DNA of 64,000 nucleotides from an uncultured Verrucomicrobiota bacterium (GTDB lineage: Bacteria; Verrucomicrobiota; Kiritimatiellia; RFP12; UBA1067). The position numbers and the translations under genes were made by a program. The notes under the pieces were generated by a model that saw nothing but the letters and a program-made list of their open reading frames with translations, had not been told where the DNA came from and ran no database searches. The stretch lies in assembly GCA_946533675.1 (NCBI GenBank), contig CAMNBZ010000012.1, forward strand, positions 4,323-68,322. The letters run 5' to 3'. The first letter of the stretch is position 1; every line of letters begins with the position of its first letter. This document shows, in pieces, positions 22,185 to 58,454 of the stretch.

Positions 22185-22540
22185 TGACGGGGGGAAAACT
22201 GACTGGGGGAAGCGTTGACTGGGGGAAGCGGCGTCCCGCCGCTTTAATCAAAAAAAAACTACGCATCTCGCCCTGACTGGGAGAAGCTTGACTGGGGGAA
22301 GCGGCGTCCCGCCGCTTTGGTCAAAAAAACGCTACGCACCTCGCCCTGACTGGGAGAAGCTTGACTGGGGGAAGCGGCGTCCCGCCGCTTTGGTCAAAAA
22401 AACGCTACGCACCTCGCCCTGACTGGGAGAAGCTTGACTGGGGGAAGCGGCGTCCCGCCGCTTCTTTTCCTTTTTGTAACAAGCGGCGAGACGCCGCTTC
22501 CCCCAGTCAACGCTTCCCCCAGTCGATTTCCCCAGTCATC
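22185..22540. repeat. REP-like array: ~73-bp unit x3-4 (each with GACTGGGGGAAGC direct duplicates and the hairpin AAGCGGCG-TCC-CGCCGCTT), ending in an inverted copy
   Basis: Period of 73 bp between 22270, 22343 and 22416. A perfect 8-bp stem hairpin. The last module (22466-22525) is the reverse complement of the first. Confidence 0.85.
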
Positions 22541-23284: not shown

Positions 23285-23460
23285 CTGGGGGAAGGGCTGA
23301 CTGGGGGAAGCGGCGTCCCGCCGCTTCTGTCAAAACGCTACACTCCTCGCCCTGACTGGGGGAAGCGGCGTCCCGCCGCTTCTTTATAAAATTGAACTTT
23401 TCCTTTTTGTAGCAAGCGGCGAGACGCCGCTTCCCCCAGTCAACGCTTCCCCCAGTCATC
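23281..23460. repeat. REP-like array (second flank of the RAYT), terminal inverted module identical to 22466-22525
   Basis: Copies of GACTGGGGGAAGCGGCGTCCCGCCGCTT, then TTTTCCTTTTTGTA[A/G]CAAGCGGCGAGACGCCGCTTCCCCCAGTCAACGCTTCCCCCAGTC. Confidence 0.85.
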
Positions 23461-28312: not shown

Positions 28313-28392
28313 CTGACTGGGGGAAGCGGCGTCCCGCCGCTTGCTAAAAAGGAGAAGGTTCAGATTACGAAGCGGCGGGACGCCGCTTCTCC
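28313..28392. repeat. REP pair (direct + inverted copy of GACTGGGGGAAGCGGCGTCCCGCCGCTT)
   Basis: CACTGACTGGGGGAAGCGGCGTCCCGCCGCTT ... AAGCGGCGGGACGCCGCTTCTCCCAGTCA, lying between PATR gene 2 and the histidine kinase. Confidence 0.8.
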
Positions 28393-51627: not shown

Positions 51628-52953
51628 TCAATCCTCGACTGGCCGCCCCAGACGGCCGTTGGCGTTGAGGCGGCGGATCGTCTCCGCCGCGAACCGCGCC
51701 TGGTCGGCGAACGAAAGGCGCACCGGCAGCCCGGACGGAAGGCCCAGGTGCGCGAGGACGATCTTCAGGATCGTCGCCGGGTGCTCGAAGTGCGCGGTCA
51801 GGAGCATACCGAGCGCCAGATAGACGCCGCCCATCGGCGCAATCCCCGCGCAGACCGTCCGGCCCTTCACGTCGCCGCGGCTGAAGCGCGTCTCCATGAG
51901 GAACAGCTCCTCGCCCGTCAGGAGGTTGCGGCACCTGACGCCGACGCCCGCCTTGACGGACAGCACCTCCAGCCATGCGTAGCGGTAGTTCGCGAAGTAG
52001 GCGGCCGCGGCGCGGTCGTAGTCGTCCAGCTCGGCCGTCCGCTTCAGGATGCGCCGGATCGCCGGTTCGCCGTGCTGGTCGTCCATCATCGCGGCAAAGT
52101 CGCCCGCCACCATATCCTGCCTCGGATCAAGCAGAAAACCCGTTTCGGAATCAATGTCCAACCCCAGCCGCCGGGCGGCGTCACGCCGCTCGTTCGGCGT
52201 CAGTTCATTCATCACGACATGACGGACGAACTCCTGCGTGACGATCCGGACGCCCTCGTAATCGTACAGGACCTGCTCGCGTTTCGCCGCGTCTTTGACA
52301 AACTTGAAGTCGATCGGCCCCGTGTCCTGCGCCGGCGGCAGCTCCTCGATCTTGATCGGCTCGCCCGCCTCCTCGTCAAGCGCATCCCCGTCTTCGTCGC
52401 CCGCGTCTCCTTCATCTGCGCCGTCTTCGTCCGCGTCGTCAAGGGACTCGAATTCAAAGAATGTCTCCTCGTCCAGAGGCGGATAGTCGATCTCCCTGAA
52501 ATGATCCCTGGCGGCCGCGAGGCGCTCACTGACGAGCCGGTCCAGCTCCTCGTCCGTCGGCGGCGGGTCGGCGACATTCGCGCCCGCGGCGGCATCGGCA
52601 AGCGAAACACGGGCGATCAGGCGCTCGCCGGTGCGGAAATCGCATCCCGCCGTAAAACAGCAGCCGAATGCGTCCAGCAACGCGTCGATCTCGCTCCCGT
52701 CACCCTCCTCGCAAGCGGCCACCCGGGCCAGGAACCCGTCGAGCTCATCTTCGCCCAGCGGCTCGGAGACGGGCGCGTCATGATCCGGCGCATACCTGTT
52801 GTAGATGTCGCGGAACTCGCCGTAGCTCAGCACACCGTGCAGATTGACCGCCGCGTTGAGGCAGCGCAGCAAGAACACCTCACGCGCGTCGAAGCCTTCC
52901 GCGCGCCACGCGCTCTCGTCGGGATCGCCGATGCGGTCAGTTGGATTTTTCAT
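51628..52953 (-). CDS. Hypothetical protein with central poly-acidic region
   Basis: Start at MKNPTDRIG. The longer track ORF start lies in a low-GC, non-coding-looking region. A D/E-rich linker. No recognised domain. Confidence 0.45.
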   Translation of the reverse strand: MKNPTDRIGDPDESAWRAEGFDAREVFLLRCLNAAVNLHGVLSYGEFRDIYNRYAPDHDAPVSEPLGEDELDGFLARVAACEEGDGSEIDALLDAFGCCFTAGCDFRTGERLIARVSLADAAAGANVADPPPTDEELDRLVSERLAAARDHFREIDYPPLDEETFFEFESLDDADEDGADEGDAGDEDGDALDEEAGEPIKIEELPPAQDTGPIDFKFVKDAAKREQVLYDYEGVRIVTQEFVRHVVMNELTPNERRDAARRLGLDIDSETGFLLDPRQDMVAGDFAAMMDDQHGEPAIRRILKRTAELDDYDRAAAAYFANYRYAWLEVLSVKAGVGVRCRNLLTGEELFLMETRFSRGDVKGRTVCAGIAPMGGVYLALGMLLTAHFEHPATILKIVLAHLGLPSGLPVRLSFADQARFAAETIRRLNANGRLGRPVED

Positions 52954-53264
52954 TCGCGCGCTTCCTTGAGTGAAACTGAGTTGCCAAGAAATCCGTAATT
53001 GCCTCCTGTGTTGCCTCAGTGAACAAACACGAGGCAACAATCCGATCCTGCCAGACGCTATAGACATGCGTCTCCGTAACGCAATAAGGCGCGGCGGGAT
53101 CATTGATCCACATGCGACCGCCACAGACACATCCACATTCATCCGTCATCCATGACATTGAATCTGCATTCGACTTTGCCACGGACAGAAAAGCATCTGG
53201 CGACGCCTCGATCGCCTTACGCCTCGACTCCACGAAACGGACCGTCTGTTCGCCGCCCGACATC

Positions 53265-54140
53265 TCAGCAAGCCAAATCAAGCGGCAGGTCGGAAATATC
53301 CTTGAGCCGTTTGCCGTCAATCATGTTGTTCAACAAAATCATCGCCTCGCCACGACTCCTCGACGAACACGTGCGCACGGCGTCAAGCAATTCATAAAGC
53401 GCAAAATGATAGACGCAGTCAATGTCGCCGGTCCCGAGCGCAAGCGAAGCGATACGCGACGGCGACGGCTCGGCCGTGACAACCACAATGTGCGGCACGC
53501 GCCCCTTTCTGTCACGCATGAGATTAAGCGCCTCGGTTCTGCTGTTCTGCGCGCGGTCGCTTCGCATGGTCCATTTCGCCGATATCGACGCGTGCAAGAT
53601 GTCCCTGCCGCCGTTGCTCTTGCGAAGGTCGGCCCTTTTGCAAAGCGTATCATCAACAAAAGCGTCCAGTTTATTGATTTCCGCATCTTCACACAATCCG
53701 CGCGACACAATCACATCGGGAGACACCAAATAGTCGTTTCCAAGCGCCGTCTGTAGTTTCGGGTTGTTGCGGACGGCCTCCGCAAGGTAGAACAAGTGCT
53801 CGTATTGAGCAAAGTCGGCGGTTTTGATCTTGCTTTTGTTGCCAAGACGCGCAACCGTCCATTTCCCCGGTCGCAGATTCTGAAGCTTAGGGAAAGTCGC
53901 AGCTACGAAATCCGCCACCGCCCCTTCAAAATCCGCTCCCGCAGTCTGCCCCTTCTTCTTTTTCGCGACAGTCTGTGCGCCGAGCGTCTTGGCGATACAC
54001 GTCGCAAGAGCGCAGGAAAACTCGTTTTTCCGGTCTGCATTCGAGGCAACGCCTGTCGTGTCAAAGCAGAGAATCTTCCGCGAAACAAGCGCCTGATGAA
54101 AAGCGCTGCGCGCCTGTGCAAAAACGATCTTACGCGTCAT
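53265..54140 (-). CDS. Type II restriction endonuclease, NgoMIV family (predicted GCCGGC specificity)
   Basis: Start at MTRKIVF with an AGGAGG RBS. GVASNAD, RPGKW, FAQYEHL, LHASISAKWTMRSDRAQN, GRVPHIVVVTAEPSPSRI and ALGTGDIDCVYHFALYEL resemble NgoMIV as recalled. Low GC. Overlaps the methyltransferase stop by 11 nt. Confidence 0.65.
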   Translation of the reverse strand: MTRKIVFAQARSAFHQALVSRKILCFDTTGVASNADRKNEFSCALATCIAKTLGAQTVAKKKKGQTAGADFEGAVADFVAATFPKLQNLRPGKWTVARLGNKSKIKTADFAQYEHLFYLAEAVRNNPKLQTALGNDYLVSPDVIVSRGLCEDAEINKLDAFVDDTLCKRADLRKSNGGRDILHASISAKWTMRSDRAQNSRTEALNLMRDRKGRVPHIVVVTAEPSPSRIASLALGTGDIDCVYHFALYELLDAVRTCSSRSRGEAMILLNNMIDGKRLKDISDLPLDLAC

Positions 54141-55653
54141 TTTTAAGGCACCTCCTGATCTGAATCCCGACAGCCTTTGCAACGGGCGGCGGGAATGCGT
54201 TTCCTATCATGCGGCAAGCGGCCGTCTTGCGGTTGCCAAAAAACCAACCGGGCGGGAAACCCTGAATCCGTGCTATCATCTCCTTGGTCAACTTCGGGCT
54301 GCCGACAAAGTCCTTTGCCGGCGGTTCGTTTGCGATACCAAGGCCATCGACACCGAGTTCCGCCCATGCGCGGCGCGCGCGCGTCGGCCCGAGGTCAGGG
54401 CCGCCGTGCTTCTTGCTGCCGCCGACAATGGTTGGCGCGATCTTATCAGCCTTGGCGACCCATTCATCAAGGCCACGCCATCCATTCGCACCCATGAGCT
54501 CTTTGAGCGCCTTCCCTACCGTCGGGGCGGCCTGACGATTCACCGCAGGATATGCGAACGCCCCTTTTTCATCGTTGCGGATGCCAACGATCACAACCCT
54601 TGGACGAATCTGCGGGACGCCATAGTCGCTTGCCTGGAGCAGCTTGATGTCGGCACGATAGCCCAAGCGCCTGATTGCAGTCAAAATGCTGTTGCGATAA
54701 CCCTCAAACTTCGGATCAAGGAAGCCGCGCACATTCTCAAGCATCACCGCACGCGGACGCATCTCCGCAATCAACCGGATCGCCTGCGGGAAGAGGTCGC
54801 GCTCGTCATCCGCCCCCAACTGCTTCGATGCAACCGAAAACGGCGGGCACGGGACACCGCCAGCCAGCAGATCGATGCCTTGGTAAGGCGTGCCATCAAA
54901 ATCATGCACATCACCGCAGATGACGTTCCAGTCGGGCTTGTTTTCCCTCAGCACCTTGCAATAATCATGCTCATACTCGACAAGCGCCACATGCCTGAAT
55001 CCGGCGCGATCAAGGCCGAGCGCCTGCCCGCCCGCTCCCGCACATATCTCGACGCACGTCAACTCGCCATCTCTTCTCGCCGCGCCAACCAGACTGCGGG
55101 CAATTTGAAGGCCATAGTCAAAGCCGTCGTTCGTCTGAAAGAAATCGTCCTGAACCGGATTGAAGGTCGTGGCGGATTTCCAGCGCTTGACGTAGGGCTT
55201 CAGGCAATCGAAGACGTACGGCATCGACTTTCCGCCCGTGACGGGATAGGGCTTCGAGTAGAACGCCTCGTCGATCTTCACGCACGGGCAGCGCGCCGAG
55301 CTGACATAGACGTTCGCCGACCTGCGCCCCAGAAGCTTCGCGGGCGTCGCCTCGGCGACCAGCTCGTACAGCGCATATTTCTCGCCGTGCGGCCGCGCGG
55401 CCGGCGAATAGCCGCTCCGCGTCAGCGCCGCACCGTCCGTCACCTCCTTGAATTTCGCCGTGAACGCATAGTTCGGCTTCCCTTCGGCAAACAGCACGAC
55501 TCCCGAAATCTTTTCGTGGAAGGCCAGTTTGCCGCATTTCGGCAGCGGCAGATTGTAGAGCCGTTTCTCTGCGATCCACCGCTCGTTCGCAGGGCGATAG
55601 GTCCCTACGAGCACCGTGGCGTCAGCCGAGGCCGATTTGCGGGAAGCAGCCAT
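54130..55653 (-). CDS. DNA (cytosine-5)-methyltransferase with ~190-aa N-terminal extension of unknown function
   Basis: The C-terminal 310 aa carry ICAGAGG (motif I), GVPCPPFS (IV), ENV (VI), QIRPRV (VIII) and GNAFPPPVAKAVG (X). There is no stop across the N-terminal extension. Only 7 nt separate it from the gltX stop. Confidence 0.8.
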   Translation of the reverse strand: MAASRKSASADATVLVGTYRPANERWIAEKRLYNLPLPKCGKLAFHEKISGVVLFAEGKPNYAFTAKFKEVTDGAALTRSGYSPAARPHGEKYALYELVAEATPAKLLGRRSANVYVSSARCPCVKIDEAFYSKPYPVTGGKSMPYVFDCLKPYVKRWKSATTFNPVQDDFFQTNDGFDYGLQIARSLVGAARRDGELTCVEICAGAGGQALGLDRAGFRHVALVEYEHDYCKVLRENKPDWNVICGDVHDFDGTPYQGIDLLAGGVPCPPFSVASKQLGADDERDLFPQAIRLIAEMRPRAVMLENVRGFLDPKFEGYRNSILTAIRRLGYRADIKLLQASDYGVPQIRPRVVIVGIRNDEKGAFAYPAVNRQAAPTVGKALKELMGANGWRGLDEWVAKADKIAPTIVGGSKKHGGPDLGPTRARRAWAELGVDGLGIANEPPAKDFVGSPKLTKEMIARIQGFPPGWFFGNRKTAACRMIGNAFPPPVAKAVGIQIRRCLKNDA

Positions 55654-55659
55654 CGTCCG

Positions 55660-56985
55660 TCAGCCGCAAAGCGTGTCCGCCGCCCGCTGGAGGCGCGCGA
55701 GCGTCTTGTCCTTGCCGAGGAGCTGGAGCATTTCAAAGAGGCCGATGCCTTCGCCGCGGCCCGAGACCGCGACGCGGATCGGATGGACCCACGGCCCCAT
55801 GCCGTTGCCCTGCGAGAGGCCCTTGACGACCGCCTCGAGCGCGGGCGCCGTCCAGTCGGCGACGGCACCGAAGCGCTGGATGAGGTCGAGCAGGATGTCC
55901 TTCACGCCCGGCTTCTTCAGCCGCTTCTCCACCGCCTTCTCGTCAAACGGGAAGTCGTCGGAGACGAAGCAGCGGATCGCCGCCGGAATGTCGTTCAGGA
56001 ACTTGGTGCGCACCTGAAGCTGCTCGGCGAGATAGTTCCACCAGGCGGCATCGTGCTCGGGGACGCGAGACGTGAGAGTGGAGACGCGGTTCTTGATCTC
56101 TTCCACGAACTGCGCAAGGGGGATCTTCTTGATGTACTCGCCGTTCATCCACGCGAGCTTCTTCGGGTCGAACATCGCGGCGGTGACGTGGACCTTCTCC
56201 AGCTCGAAGAGCTCGATCATCTCTTCGCGCGTCAGCACCTCGCGGTCGTCGCCCGGGTTCCAGCCGAGCAGCAGCAGGTAGTTGAAGAGCGCCTCGGGGA
56301 GATACCCCTGCTCGCGGTACTCGCCGACGAACGCCGCGCCGTCGCGCTTCGAGTAGGGCTTGCCCTGCTGGTTGACGATCATCGACAGGTGCCCGTACTT
56401 CGGCACCGGCGCGCCGAGCGCCTTGAAGATGCAGATGTGCTTGAACGTGTTCTCCACGTGGTCGTCGCCGCGGATGATGTGCGTCACGCGCTGGTCGATG
56501 TCGTCGACGACGTTCGCGATGTGGAAGATCGGCGAGCCGTCGGAGCGGACGATCGCGAAGTCCGGAATGTCCTCGGCCTTCTTGGCCATGTGGCCCTTGA
56601 CGATGTCGTCGAATTCGATGACGCCCTCCTTCGGCATCCGGAACATCGTCACGACGCCCGTCTTGCCGTCGCGCGACGTCTTCTCGACCTTGTAGGCGTG
56701 GCCCGAGGCGAGCAGCCGGTCGACGGCCTCCAGATGGCGCTTGACGTTCTTCGTCTGGTAGAAGACCTCCTCGTCCCAGTCGAGGCCGAGCCACTTCATG
56801 CAGTCGAAGAGGACGGCGATGGCCTCGGGCGTGGAGCGCTCGAGATCCGTGTCCTCGATGCGCAGCAGGAACCTGCCGCCCGTGTGGCGCGCGAACAGCC
56901 AGTTGTAGATGGCCGCGCGGATGTTGCCGATATGCACCTTGCCCGTCGGCGACGGCGCAAAGCGAACGCGAATGTCGTTGTTCAT
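55660..56985 (-). CDS. gltX: Glutamate--tRNA ligase
   Basis: Start at MNNDIRVRFAPSPTGKVHIGN (HIGH). KMSKS-like region. The upstream part of the track ORF is an artefact. AGGAGAG RBS. Confidence 0.9.
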   Translation of the reverse strand: MNNDIRVRFAPSPTGKVHIGNIRAAIYNWLFARHTGGRFLLRIEDTDLERSTPEAIAVLFDCMKWLGLDWDEEVFYQTKNVKRHLEAVDRLLASGHAYKVEKTSRDGKTGVVTMFRMPKEGVIEFDDIVKGHMAKKAEDIPDFAIVRSDGSPIFHIANVVDDIDQRVTHIIRGDDHVENTFKHICIFKALGAPVPKYGHLSMIVNQQGKPYSKRDGAAFVGEYREQGYLPEALFNYLLLLGWNPGDDREVLTREEMIELFELEKVHVTAAMFDPKKLAWMNGEYIKKIPLAQFVEEIKNRVSTLTSRVPEHDAAWWNYLAEQLQVRTKFLNDIPAAIRCFVSDDFPFDEKAVEKRLKKPGVKDILLDLIQRFGAVADWTAPALEAVVKGLSQGNGMGPWVHPIRVAVSGRGEGIGLFEMLQLLGKDKTLARLQRAADTLCG

Positions 56986-58454
56986 TTCTTTTTCTCTCCT
57001 TGACAGTGGGGACAGTGCGCACAGTGGTAGCTGTCGCCCGTGACGGCGACGTCGCGGCCCGTCCAGCAGTAGGTGCACAGGTGATCTTCCGGCAGGCCGA
57101 TCGCCTTGATGAGATCGTCGATGCGCTGGAACGCGAGCGAGGTCAGGTTCAGCTTCTCGCGGATGAACTCGACCATGTTCGCGTAGTCGGGGCTGTCGGG
57201 ATCCGTGTACTTCGCGAGATCCGCGCCCTCGCCCTCGTGCCCGCGCACGTAGCGCCGCGTGATGAGGTCGTAGACGCTCTTCGAGCGCGAGAAGTTGAGG
57301 AAGAGGCAGGGATAGACGAGCGGCGGGCACGCGATGCGCATGTGCGTCTCCTTGCAGCCGAGCGCATAGAGCCGCGCCGCCTGCTTGCCAAGCTGGGTAC
57401 CGCGCACGATCGAGTCGTCGCAGAAGACGAGCTTCTTGTCCTTGATGAGCCCGGGGATCGAGATGAGCTTCATCGACGCGACGTGCTCGCGCTGGCGCTG
57501 GTCCTGCGGCATGAACGAGCGCGCCCACGTCGGCGTGTACTTGACGAACGGCCGCGAGAACTTGATGCCCGCCTCGTGCGCGTAGCCGAGCGCGTGGGAC
57601 GTGCCCGAGTCGGGGATGCCGCACGCCGCGTCCGCGTCCGTCGGCGTCCGCCGCGCGAGCGCGCCGCCGCAGCGGTAGCGCGTCATCTCGACGTTGCGCC
57701 CCTCGTAGGTCGAGGCCGGATAGCCGTAGTAGACCCAGAGGAACGAGCAGATCGCCATCTTCTTTCCCGGCTCGACGAGCGTGATGTCGGCCTCGGGCGT
57801 CAGCTCCGCGACTTCGCCCGGCCCGAGGTCGCGCACGTAGTCGTAGCCGAGGTTCGGCAGCGCGCAGCTTTCCATCAGCGCGATCATCGCGCCGTCCTTC
57901 TTGCCGAGGATGACCGGCGTGCGGCCCCAGCGGTCGCGCGCGGCGTAGAGCCGCCCCTTCTCGTCCACGATGAGGAGCGAGCAGCTGCCCTTGACCTTCG
58001 CCTGCACGTACTTGATGCCGTCGATGAGCGTGGCCTGGCTCGCGATCAGCGCGGAGACGACCTCGGTCGGCCCGACCATGCCGCTCGTCGTGGAGAACTG
58101 GAGCTGCATGTTGCTGTTGGTGAAGAGCTCCGTCTTCAGCTCGTCGATGTTGGAGATCATCCCGACGGTGACGATGGCGAAGGTGCCGAGCTTCGAGCAC
58201 ATGACGAGCGGCTGCGGGTCGGTGTCGGAGATGACGCCGATGCCGACCGCGCCCGCGAAGCGCGCGAAGTCGCCCTCGAACTTCGAGCGGAACGGCGCGT
58301 TCTGGATGTTGTGGATCGAGCGCTGGAAGACGCCGTCCGGCTTCAGCACCGCCAGGCCGCCGCGGTGCGTGCCGAGGTGGGAATGGTAGTCCGTGCCGAA
58401 GAACAGATCGCTCACGCAATCCGACTTGGTGATCACTCCGCAAAATCCGCCCAT
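56982..58454 (-). CDS. purF: Amidophosphoribosyltransferase-like (class II glutamine amidotransferase + PRTase, Fe-S type)
   Basis: 490 aa. MGGF propeptide followed by the nucleophile Cys (CGV). PRPP motif LVFCDDSIVRGTQ. C-terminal Cys cluster CTYC...CAHCPHC. ATGA overlap with the gltX start. Confidence 0.7.
   Translation of the reverse strand: MGGFCGVITKSDCVSDLFFGTDYHSHLGTHRGGLAVLKPDGVFQRSIHNIQNAPFRSKFEGDFARFAGAVGIGVISDTDPQPLVMCSKLGTFAIVTVGMISNIDELKTELFTNSNMQLQFSTTSGMVGPTEVVSALIASQATLIDGIKYVQAKVKGSCSLLIVDEKGRLYAARDRWGRTPVILGKKDGAMIALMESCALPNLGYDYVRDLGPGEVAELTPEADITLVEPGKKMAICSFLWVYYGYPASTYEGRNVEMTRYRCGGALARRTPTDADAACGIPDSGTSHALGYAHEAGIKFSRPFVKYTPTWARSFMPQDQRQREHVASMKLISIPGLIKDKKLVFCDDSIVRGTQLGKQAARLYALGCKETHMRIACPPLVYPCLFLNFSRSKSVYDLITRRYVRGHEGEGADLAKYTDPDSPDYANMVEFIREKLNLTSLAFQRIDDLIKAIGLPEDHLCTYCWTGRDVAVTGDSYHCAHCPHCQGEKKK

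Follow-up and report, generated by a model that had tools for sequence, protein, structure and literature searches.

C5-cytosine methyltransferases of the SsoII, EcoRII and MspI type carry an N-terminal extension of about 70–100 amino acids (aa) that contains a helix-turn-helix (HTH) and represses the operon promoter, and eukaryotic maintenance methylation relies on the SRA domain of UHRF1 together with the PCNA-binding motif of DNMT1. Domains of the PUA superfamily (SRA, EVE, ASCH and YTH) have been described in modification-dependent Type IV enzymes and in McrB N-terminal domains (Lutz et al. 2019, PMC6765204). Prokaryotic fusions of a DCD or EVE domain to a methyltransferase, followed by a PD-(D/E)XK nuclease gene, have also been reported, with EVE-methylase fusions termed 'extremely rare' and with archaea and hyperthermophiles as the main source of the DCD/EVE examples (Bell, Wolf and Koonin 2020, PMC7641849). 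Here we describe a Type II restriction-modification (R-M) operon in a 64,000-nucleotide (nt) stretch of DNA (the window) from an uncultured Verrucomicrobiota bacterium of the Kiritimatiellia (assembly GCA_946533675.1, contig CAMNBZ010000012.1, positions 4,323 to 68,322), in which the C5-cytosine methyltransferase begins with a module that appears to represent a rare protein family.

The operon is intact and horizontally acquired, with the methylase gene first and the endonuclease gene second. On balance, we lean towards explaining the locus as a whole by this acquired operon together with a PUA-like module that would tether the methylase to host DNA.

The restriction-modification operon

The first gene (54130..55653, minus strand; 507 aa) is a fusion of the N-terminal module with a C5-cytosine DNA methyltransferase, and the second (53265..54140, minus strand; 291 aa) encodes a Type II restriction endonuclease of the NgoMIV family. 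An overlap of 11 nt (54130–54140) links the two genes, as stated in an earlier reading of the sequence (the original prediction), and an AGGAGG Shine-Dalgarno sequence lies 11 nt upstream of the endonuclease ATG. An identical locus is found on two independent metagenome contigs, where the same genes are called and the spacer downstream of the endonuclease is left without any call; the 507-aa gene is called on independent contigs and is present in NCBI, ENA and Logan. At 90% clustering, the endonuclease falls in a cluster of 63 members and the 507-aa methylase stands alone in its own.

The assignment of the endonuclease to the NgoMIV family, rather than to a different one, is borne out by a match to PF09015 (NgoMIV_restric) over 274 of the 275 profile positions (E 2e-116; score 388.3 bits, cut-off 23.2), by the PADLOC model REase_II (E 4e-99) and by an end-to-end alignment with the Protein Data Bank (PDB) entry 1FIU at 53% identity (E 8e-94). 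Aligned pairs include SPDVIV/TPDIIV, SISAKW/SISCKW, RSDRAQN in both proteins, and the glutamate within RTEALNL/RSEGLNL. The R-S-D-R motif of the NgoMIV family reads the central CCGG of the target. Both this recognition motif and the catalytic Asp, Lys and Glu positions, presumably equivalent to D140, K187 and E201 in NgoMIV numbering (Deibert et al. 2000), are kept relative to 1FIU. Since the endonuclease is an NgoMIV orthologue, its predicted target is most likely GCCGGC. Enzymes of the NgoMIV family cleave this sequence as tetramers that act on two sites, and cognate methylation blocks them.

The catalytic and target-recognition domains of the methylase occupy aa 199–507 (54133..55059, minus strand). 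PF00145 matches residues 199–499 (E 4e-64, 217.5 bits against a cut-off of 22), TIGR00675 also matches, alignments to HaeIII and HhaI begin at residue ~198, and every PADLOC MTase_II model starts matching at about residue 197, in agreement with the original placement of the C5-methyltransferase motifs in the last 310 aa. Motifs I (CAGAGG), IV (GVPCPPFS), VI (ENV, within LENV), VIII (QIRPR) and X (GNAFPPP) are all kept, and by these marks the catalytic half can be taken as a canonical C5-cytosine enzyme. In a comparison of the window gene with eight homologous NgoMIV-type genes, to which all selection estimates below also refer, the ratio of nonsynonymous to synonymous substitution (dN/dS) of the methylase domain is 0.04–0.06.

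Two deletion derivatives among the related proteins (P numbers; P0007 and P0014) join methylase motif I (EICAG) to the last ~45 residues of an NgoMIV-type endonuclease. Lacking most of both genes, they are either true decay products or assembly collapses.

The N-terminal module is conserved and accessory

Nothing in Pfam, NCBIfam, PADLOC, PHROGs or the sequences of the PDB matches residues 1–198, including at relaxed thresholds and with family profiles, and 20 diverse family members scanned against Pfam, NCBIfam, PADLOC and PHROGs gave no match either. Querying the PDB sequences with the protein, and also with two family profiles, returned methylase-domain matches or noise only. The extension of ~190 aa that had been described as carrying no recognisable signature is a genuine domain of ~170–190 aa, uncharacterised at the sequence level. 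A search with residues 1–199 found 34 relatives at 40–81% identity, an exhaustive profile search of 1.84 billion representative proteins gave 173 matches, and a second indexed search with a broader alignment gave 204, which points to a family that is real but rare.

The dN/dS ratio is 0.12–0.29 for residues 10–118 and 0.03–0.33 for residues 119–175. Synonymous sites are near saturation (dS about 1–2), and the conservation of the amino acids at such divergence indicates constraint on the protein sequence. The first ~172 residues of the methylase thus read as a separate translated module under purifying selection.

Stand-alone orthologues of 310 aa, 76–79% identical in the catalytic domain and without the module, pair with an NgoMIV-type endonuclease at two of the related loci (L numbers; L064 and L065), where the pairs adjoin relaxase and NikA genes. 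A 369-aa form (L066, L067), next to an NgoMIV-type endonuclease, retains only the last ~20 module residues (…VCEEALQYDF…) and the linker. Because close 310-aa orthologues without the module pair with the same kind of endonuclease, the module is accessory, and it would appear not to be needed for basic R-M function.

Several relatives carry insertions of 15–30 aa rich in Arg, Gly, Pro and Ala (e.g. ...SRKDGRAGAPRTPPA..., ...GRVERVERVDGRGKRPACPK...) in two surface loops of the module, after PLPK in P0007, P0009, P0011, P0012 and P0017 and before HG..Y in P0194, P0200 and P0234. These look like a small repeat element lying in frame within the coding sequence.

Predicted fold of the module

Modelling the N-terminus with AlphaFold2, a check proposed with the original prediction, gave confident models. 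Residues 1–199 reached a predicted local distance difference test score (pLDDT) of 84.5 and a predicted TM-score (pTM) of 0.78; core residues 8–125, with a deeper alignment of 51 sequences, reached a pLDDT of 92.2 and a pTM of 0.85. The module opens with a predicted beta-barrel core (aa 12–118; 55300..55620, minus strand), delimited by the model, structural matches, conservation and dN/dS, which is followed by a small alpha/beta subdomain (aa 119–164; 55162..55299, minus strand; pLDDT 88–94), the most constrained N-terminal part. After the junction motif described below comes a variable linker with a low-confidence helix (aa 173–198; 55060..55137, minus strand; pLDDT 51–71), recognised from the model, the N-termini of orthologues and a survey of codons.

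Structures were compared using Foldseek against the PDB and against BFVD, a library of viral structures. Nothing in the PDB fell below an E-value of 1e-3. Among the top 32 PDB matches to the core model, 31 are EVE, YTH, ASCH or related PUA-like barrels: 2ar1 (E 0.014, probability 0.84), YTHDF2 including 4rdn (probability 0.72–0.80), MJECL36 (2p5d) and the ASCH protein 3iuw, and further YTHDC1 (query TM-score, TMq, up to 0.46), THYN1, 2g2x, PH0355 and YqfB. These PUA-like matches are weak and short of strict significance, with TMq of 0.36–0.46; the weaker list obtained from the full model has the same families at its top. In BFVD the named top matches are ASCH, DUF3850 and ASC-1, the best with an E-value of 1.6e-3 and a probability of 0.99. 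The order of secondary-structure elements in the model agrees with the published description of the EVE fold.

With moderate confidence, the models suggest that the core belongs, as a divergent member, to the PUA-like fold class (EVE/YTH/ASCH) and is a nucleic-acid-binding barrel. Of the three roles that had been proposed for the extension (a fused controller, a DNA reader or a second enzymatic domain), that of a reader is best supported, by this likeness. Residues G17, T18, W26, Y33, N34, P36, Y82 and Y93 are invariant or nearly so across the wide family, and the aromatics W26, Y33, Y82 and Y93 are compatible with a putative modified-base pocket.

A conserved motif at the junction

The module ends in a conserved junction motif, NPVQDDFF in the window (aa 165–172; 55138..55161, minus strand), which stands out in a table of motifs, in its dependence on cargo and as a changepoint in GC content at third codon positions (GC3). 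All versions of the module end in a conserved Gln, followed in methylase fusions by an acidic or polar residue and two hydrophobic ones. The motif reads NPVQ(D/M/G/E/L)DFF in clade A, to which the window belongs, and LRVCEAAVQ(L/M)(D/E/S/N)(F/L)(F/L) in clade B, where exact QLSLF and QLNLF occur; junction peptides include TFNPVQDDFFQTN and EAAVQLDFF. The family consensus is Q-[LM]-[DES]-[FL]-[FLW], with QDDFF in the window.

Whether the motif is kept depends on what the module is fused to. The pattern Q-x-[DESN]-hydrophobic-hydrophobic is found in all 19 clade-A C5-methylase fusions, in 14 of the 21 clade-B C5-methylase fusions when applied strictly (17 of 21 loosely) and in both N4/N6 methylase fusions; it is found in none of the 10 DUF3791 fusions and is absent from the ORF6N and RhuM fusions. 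AlphaFold2 places a short helix over DDFFQT, and model confidence falls there, from about 80 to 51 at the motif. By its distribution among these sequences, the motif seems to behave as a short linear motif tied to methylase cargo. It resembles the bacterial beta-clamp-binding consensus QLxLF (PMC4549789) and might be a beta-clamp-binding site, a reading that we consider rather unlikely. A literature search for clamp-binding R-M methylases found nothing relevant.

Partners and distribution of the module

The loci that could be placed come from gut and rumen metagenome-assembled genomes (MAGs) labelled Kiritimatiellia, Lentisphaerae or Verrucomicrobia, or from contigs that are probably mis-binned. 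A typical family member had no tblastn match in 50,697 phage and 72,556 plasmid records, and IMG/VR scans with two queries returned no relative; the module therefore does not look phage- or plasmid-borne.

Among 61 relatives longer than 250 aa, PF00145 is present in 49, N6_N4_Mtase in three, Eco57I/N6_Mtase in one and ORF6N in one, and in several relatives a core of ~100 aa lies at the methylase C-terminus. In the closer relatives the fusion is followed by a downstream nuclease gene, usually with an overlap of 1–11 nt. This partner is of the NgoMIV type at many loci and otherwise HpaII (L016), MspI (L020, L029), NotI-like (L027), Bpu10I-like (L026) or HNH/HNH_2 (L019). In a sister clade the module is fused to DUF3791 and the next gene encodes DUF3990, a member of the ADP-ribosyltransferase (ART)-like clan (PMC7955679). 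Other arrangements include an ORF6N fusion followed by an LPD3 gene, a RhuM fusion, a module with a 100-aa tail of no known kind followed by an overlapping 168-aa gene, and a stand-alone module followed by a NOV_C nuclease-like gene. Judged by these gene sequences, the module appears joined to the methylases of at least six R-M systems and to non-methylase genes. What these arrangements share is a two-gene cassette in which the module sits on the first gene, of protective or regulatory character, and the second is potentially toxic.

At some sister-clade loci (L037–L040 and L041–L043), tightly packed same-strand arrays of NOV_C, DUF4928, RadC, ORF6N, HNH_2 and HsdM genes lie downstream of module-headed genes; these look like defence/anti-defence junkyards.

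An insertion hot spot with exchanged cargo

A module-headed cassette lies between gltX and a gene that we call p441 in at least 12 distinct contigs, and the cargo varies. The site holds an NgoMIV-type R-M system in the window, L001/2, L010, L022 and L062; an HpaII-type system in L016 and L045; other C5-methylases in L013 and L047; ORF6N with LPD3 in L003/4 and L046; and decayed or other genes in L034, L036 and L057. In L051 and L053 the site is empty, with gltX separated from p441 by ~220 base pairs (bp), and the module with its cargo is therefore an insertion. Module-headed cassettes are also found directly after the stop codons of nrdD, the ornithine carbamoyltransferase gene (argF), a deaminase gene and p441 itself, always in the same orientation. 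The gene listings and calls show no recombinase in or beside the island, and a search for flanking direct or inverted repeats of the kind left by transposons or integrases found short, chance-level repeats only. An integron-like cassette array was considered and rejected, as the genes overlap by 4–11 nt and no attC-like hairpins lie between them.

The composition of the island is mosaic. GC3 in the window is 0.93–0.95 in host genes, 0.84 in p441, 0.81 in the module, 0.67 in the methylase domain and 0.65 in the endonuclease, so that the module is close to host-like in its codon composition and the methylase and endonuclease cargo is not. The best two-segment split of the methylase gene by GC3 falls at codon 164, one codon before NPVQ, and in 21 of 22 distinct loci GC3 is higher in the module than in the cargo, by up to 0.37. 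Module similarity does not follow that of the cargo: compared with the window, L013 is 76% identical in the module and only 26% in the methylase, whereas L011 is 73% and 87% identical, respectively. The compositional seam and this lack of tracking indicate that the module is older in the lineage than its cargo and that cargo has been exchanged behind it, most likely through recombination that uses the module at one end and p441 or other flanks at the opposite end. Two further observations fit such exchange. Between nrdD and its activase gene (L005–L008, L021), a decayed cassette with an internally deleted module and a methylase fragment is followed by a gene for a PRiA4_ORF3/SEC-C protein of 566 aa, an otherwise unrelated gene that begins with the 15 opening codons of p441 (MKTPFDRIVGPEGEW), and in L003 a remnant of the p441 start lies between two cassettes.

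At the empty site of L051 (5875–5964) we noted an imperfect palindrome of ~90 nt, GGCGGTTGCTTTCGC...GCGAAAGCAATGGC, with arms 76% complementary, which recurs near other module-headed cassettes (L033 92–193, L044 8340–8377). It may be an element of the miniature inverted-repeat transposable element (MITE) or repetitive extragenic palindrome (REP) type, or a recombination site.

According to the listing of open reading frames (ORFs), the genes in this part of the window all lie on the minus strand, in the order purF-like gene (56982..58454), gltX, the 507-aa ORF, the 291-aa ORF, a 311-bp spacer, p441, and the genes for an MTS-type methyltransferase and an M50 peptidase. On its left the hot spot is flanked by the host gene gltX (glutamate--tRNA ligase; 55660..56985; GC3 0.93), identified by TIGR00464 (E 3e-133) and its translation; its stop codon lies 6 nt before the methylase ATG, and the same flank is common to L003, L010, L013, L016, L022, L034, L045–47 and L062. 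The right flank, p441 (51628..52953), is known from gene calls and homologues and encodes a conserved, uncharacterised protein of 441 aa for which Pfam, NCBIfam, PADLOC and PHROGs gave no match. Its true start is the ATG at 52953 (MKNPTDRIG...), not the start of a 504-aa ORF, and homologues at the same position are 57–67% identical and share the start MKNPF(D/N)RIVGPEGEW.

The p441 protein of ~440 aa has an acidic, low-complexity centre and a very conserved C-terminal third, and homologues occur in L003, L010, L016, L022, L034, L036 and L045–L063. It borders module-headed cassettes on one side or the other, and in L009, L014 and L017 it lies upstream of them. It may be a mere flank, or else functionally linked to the cassettes.

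How the module may act

With low to moderate confidence, we propose that the module, with its linker motif, holds the methylase on host DNA, possibly at hemimethylated sites or at the replisome. The core would bind nucleic acid, possibly a modified or hemimethylated base, and module and linker motif together would keep the methylase on host DNA, perhaps at the replisome, so that newly replicated sites could be methylated before the co-expressed endonuclease cuts them. Faster protective methylation would make incoming restriction systems safer to keep. The lineage could then reuse the module as a shared adaptor for toxin/antidote-type cassettes, carried on their protective first gene, with cargo being exchanged behind the adaptor by recombination. 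A bolder version, drawn by analogy, strikes us as doubtful: that of a lineage-specific tether which would read modified or hemimethylated DNA, dock on the beta clamp and turn imported Type II methylases of any specificity into replication-coupled maintenance enzymes, as a bacterial counterpart of UHRF1/DNMT1-PCNA, and would also serve as a resident in-frame acceptor for capturing and swapping foreign toxin/antidote cassettes at hot spots like that between gltX and p441.

Several observations weigh against this overall reading of the locus. Counting of GCCGGC, which had been suggested as a check, gave within the window 73 sites against 79 ± 8 expected; there is no depletion and therefore no independent sign of an active endonuclease. 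Such a count fits a recently acquired, fully protecting system and proves nothing about activity. The Pfam models of EVE, YTH, ASCH and DCD have no match at E ≤ 10 in 20 diverse members of the family. A reader of a single modified base is hard to reconcile with the range of fusion partners of the module, which takes in C5, N4/N6 and gamma-type N6 methylases as well as proteins that are not methylases. The putative clamp motif is short; unlike QLxLF, the QDDFF of the window has no hydrophobic residue in second position; the 369-aa forms have QYDFS or QYDFG; and the motif could be structural, since a conserved helix precedes it.

Alternative explanations

The module could instead be a controller-like regulatory domain, binding operon DNA or mRNA and timing methylase expression relative to that of the endonuclease, after the manner of the N-terminal HTH region in SsoII/EcoRII-type C5-methylases or of the DNA-binding half of type II antitoxins. 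PUA-like domains often bind RNA, and a controller would suit the constant place of the module on the first, protective gene, whether of a methylase and nuclease or of DUF3791 with ART-like DUF3990, a layout like that of autoregulated toxin-antidote modules. However, the module shows no HTH, ribbon-helix-helix or AbrB signature, its predicted fold is a beta-barrel, and the core lies at the methylase C-terminus in some relatives. The gene begins 0–90 nt after a host gene, and the DNA upstream differs from site to site (gltX, nrdD, argF, deaminase, p441), so no conserved operator is available. We therefore regard the fused-controller role as unlikely.

A second alternative, to which we give little credence, is that the conserved part matters as DNA, the module sequence and the 5' end of p441 acting as homology arms or a site-specific acceptor and the protein contributing little. 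It would account for one site with varied cargo and an empty state, for the GC3 step exactly at the junction in 21 of 22 loci, for the arrival at nrdD of a decayed cassette together with the opening 15 codons of p441, and for the remnant p441 start between the cassettes of L003. Set against these are a dS of about 1–2 with dN/dS of 0.03–0.3, which points to constraint on the protein, the presence of the module with R-M cassettes at unrelated loci without p441, and the lack of a recombinase in or beside the island.

The extension might also stand outside the working enzyme, with translation starting at the TTG of codon 198, the ancestral start position of the 310-aa orthologues, and the upstream ORF being a decaying or separately acting leftover. 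The stand-alone 310-aa orthologues begin MLTCVEICAGAGG exactly at the position of L198, the TTG in the window is preceded by a purine-rich stretch, and a 309-aa product has been called by NCBI in a related MAG. This is nevertheless improbable. The corresponding codon is CTG or CTT, a non-start Leu, in nine of 13 homologues, which rules out an internal start as a conserved feature; in about 170 proteins the frame stays open and under purifying selection, and fusions to many unrelated methylases keep it; and the 507-aa product is called on independent contigs. The internal start near residue 190 that the original prediction had weighed is thus disfavoured, and stays conceivable for the window gene alone.

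In the NCBI record of that MAG (L015, contig JBJEWD010000056.1, P0339), the 309-aa product is annotated from an internal TTG and the module lies in frame upstream, so that in this record at least it is hidden from the public protein entry.

The module is very unlikely to be a second enzyme, for instance a hydrolase of the ASCH type with a modified nucleotide as substrate. The weak structural matches do include ASCH proteins, one of them the ac4C amidohydrolase YqfB, but the catalytic pattern of ASCH is of the GxKxxExR type and none is visible in the module, the invariant residues are aromatic or structural (W26, Y33, N34, P36, Y82, Y93), and Pfam ASCH does not match.

The spacer and other non-coding elements

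Between the endonuclease and p441 lies a spacer of 311 bp (52954..53264), which we examined by GC content, codon periodicity and homologue search. It is of low GC, as the original prediction had noted (about 0.51 against 0.657 for the window). The prediction had also drawn attention to a perfect hairpin and to a 72-aa ORF as a possible third cargo gene. The hairpin, a perfect 9-bp stem TGTTGCCTC-N13-GAGGCAACA at 53009–53039, exists, and is no more than expected by chance: the window has 21 perfect stems of at least 9 bp against 12.3 ± 4.8 (maximum 22) in composition-preserving local shuffles. The 72-aa ORF (53155..52937) exists too, as an internal ATG of a 127-aa ORF starting with TTG. Its GC content is flat across codon positions (0.47/0.51/0.55) compared with a GC3 of 0.93–0.95 in host genes, it is uncalled on two independent contigs, its exact peptide is absent from 15 billion proteins, and it has no family match in Pfam, PADLOC or PHROGs, so a role as third cargo gene has no support. 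Neither spacer nor ORF has a homologue in more than 60 related loci; both are unique to the species, and in L022 no more than 79 bp separate the endonuclease from p441.

That the spacer holds a third functional element, be it the ORF, a structured RNA or an operator at the hairpin, is scarcely credible: the ORF and the stem are there, the latter folding at -18.6 kcal/mol 55 nt upstream of the p441 start, but there is no codon periodicity, gene call or related-locus homologue, an Rfam scan of 52700–55800 gave no match, and the stem count lies within the shuffle range. Most likely, the spacer is non-coding tail DNA that arrived with the cargo. As operon terminator, a hairpin GGCGATCGAGGCGTCGCC followed by AGATGCTTTT (53199..53216, minus strand), found by a consensus scan 49 nt past the endonuclease stop, is a better candidate than the 9-bp-stem hairpin, which has no T-run after it; terminator-like sites in the region are no more numerous than expected from shuffles.

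Elsewhere in the window, a 73-bp unit is repeated in tandem 3.6 times at 96% identity (22199–22463). Each copy contains a GC hairpin, GAAGCGGCG-N3-CGCCGCTTY, followed by an A-run, and the hairpin occurs again at distances of 1 kb and 6 kb (23307–23433 and 28323–28389); the GAAGCGGCG hairpin pattern has 10 matches in the window against 0.03 expected. A CRISPR array was rejected as an explanation because whole units are 96% identical. The repeats could be stacked terminators or a REP-like element.

Significance and comparison with known systems

The module family is absent from the curated libraries searched and confined, as far as seen, to uncultured gut and rumen Kiritimatiellia, where it is joined in frame, at one conserved junction, to methylases from six or more restriction systems as well as to other protective genes. 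We find it notable for the breadth of its partners, for a clamp-like motif that depends on cargo and for the compositional seam at the junction. If the module is indeed a reader or replisome tether, it would show a lineage "domesticating" incoming restriction systems by lowering their self-toxicity, and bacterial epigenetics would gain a further reader-writer architecture. Were the junction to prove a capture site, it would represent a new way to assemble defence genes.

The R-M pair itself is ordinary, a member of a known family. It resembles the NgoMIV system of Neisseria gonorrhoeae (PDB 1FIU/4ABT) in its endonuclease, which aligns end to end, and in the overlapping gene of a C5-methylase partner. 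It differs in the N-terminal extension of ~198 aa on the methylase, which 310-aa orthologues lack, and in its setting, a gut Kiritimatiellia host with the island in a lineage-specific hot spot. Like the SsoII-, EcoRII- and MspI-type enzymes, the methylase is a C5 enzyme of a Type II system with an N-terminal add-on dispensable for catalysis; unlike theirs, the add-on is ~172 aa long and beta-rich, matches no HTH family and has no conserved operator upstream.

By sequence the module is not a member of EVE or DCD, and it would fall within the known theme of reader-like domains in R-M systems. It probably shares its fold class, and shares a defence setting, with the domains of Type IV enzymes. 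There the reader sits on the nuclease and directs cleavage of modified DNA, whereas here the protective methylase carries it, next to a nuclease of the conventional Type II kind that is blocked by modification. Should both the fold and the motif assignment hold, the combination of a PUA-like base reader and a sliding-clamp-type motif on a C5-methylase would parallel UHRF1/DNMT1 by analogy, with no homology beyond fold class and with a motif of the bacterial QLxLF type rather than a PIP (PCNA-interacting protein) box. The nearest published architecture is that of the DCD/EVE fusions, in which a PUA-like reader-type domain likewise stands N-terminal to a Rossmann-fold methyltransferase, with a nuclease gene coming next. 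Unlike those domains, the module is not matched by either Pfam model; it has an additional subdomain as well as a conserved motif in the linker, and is found on ordinary Type II methylases of at least six specificities.

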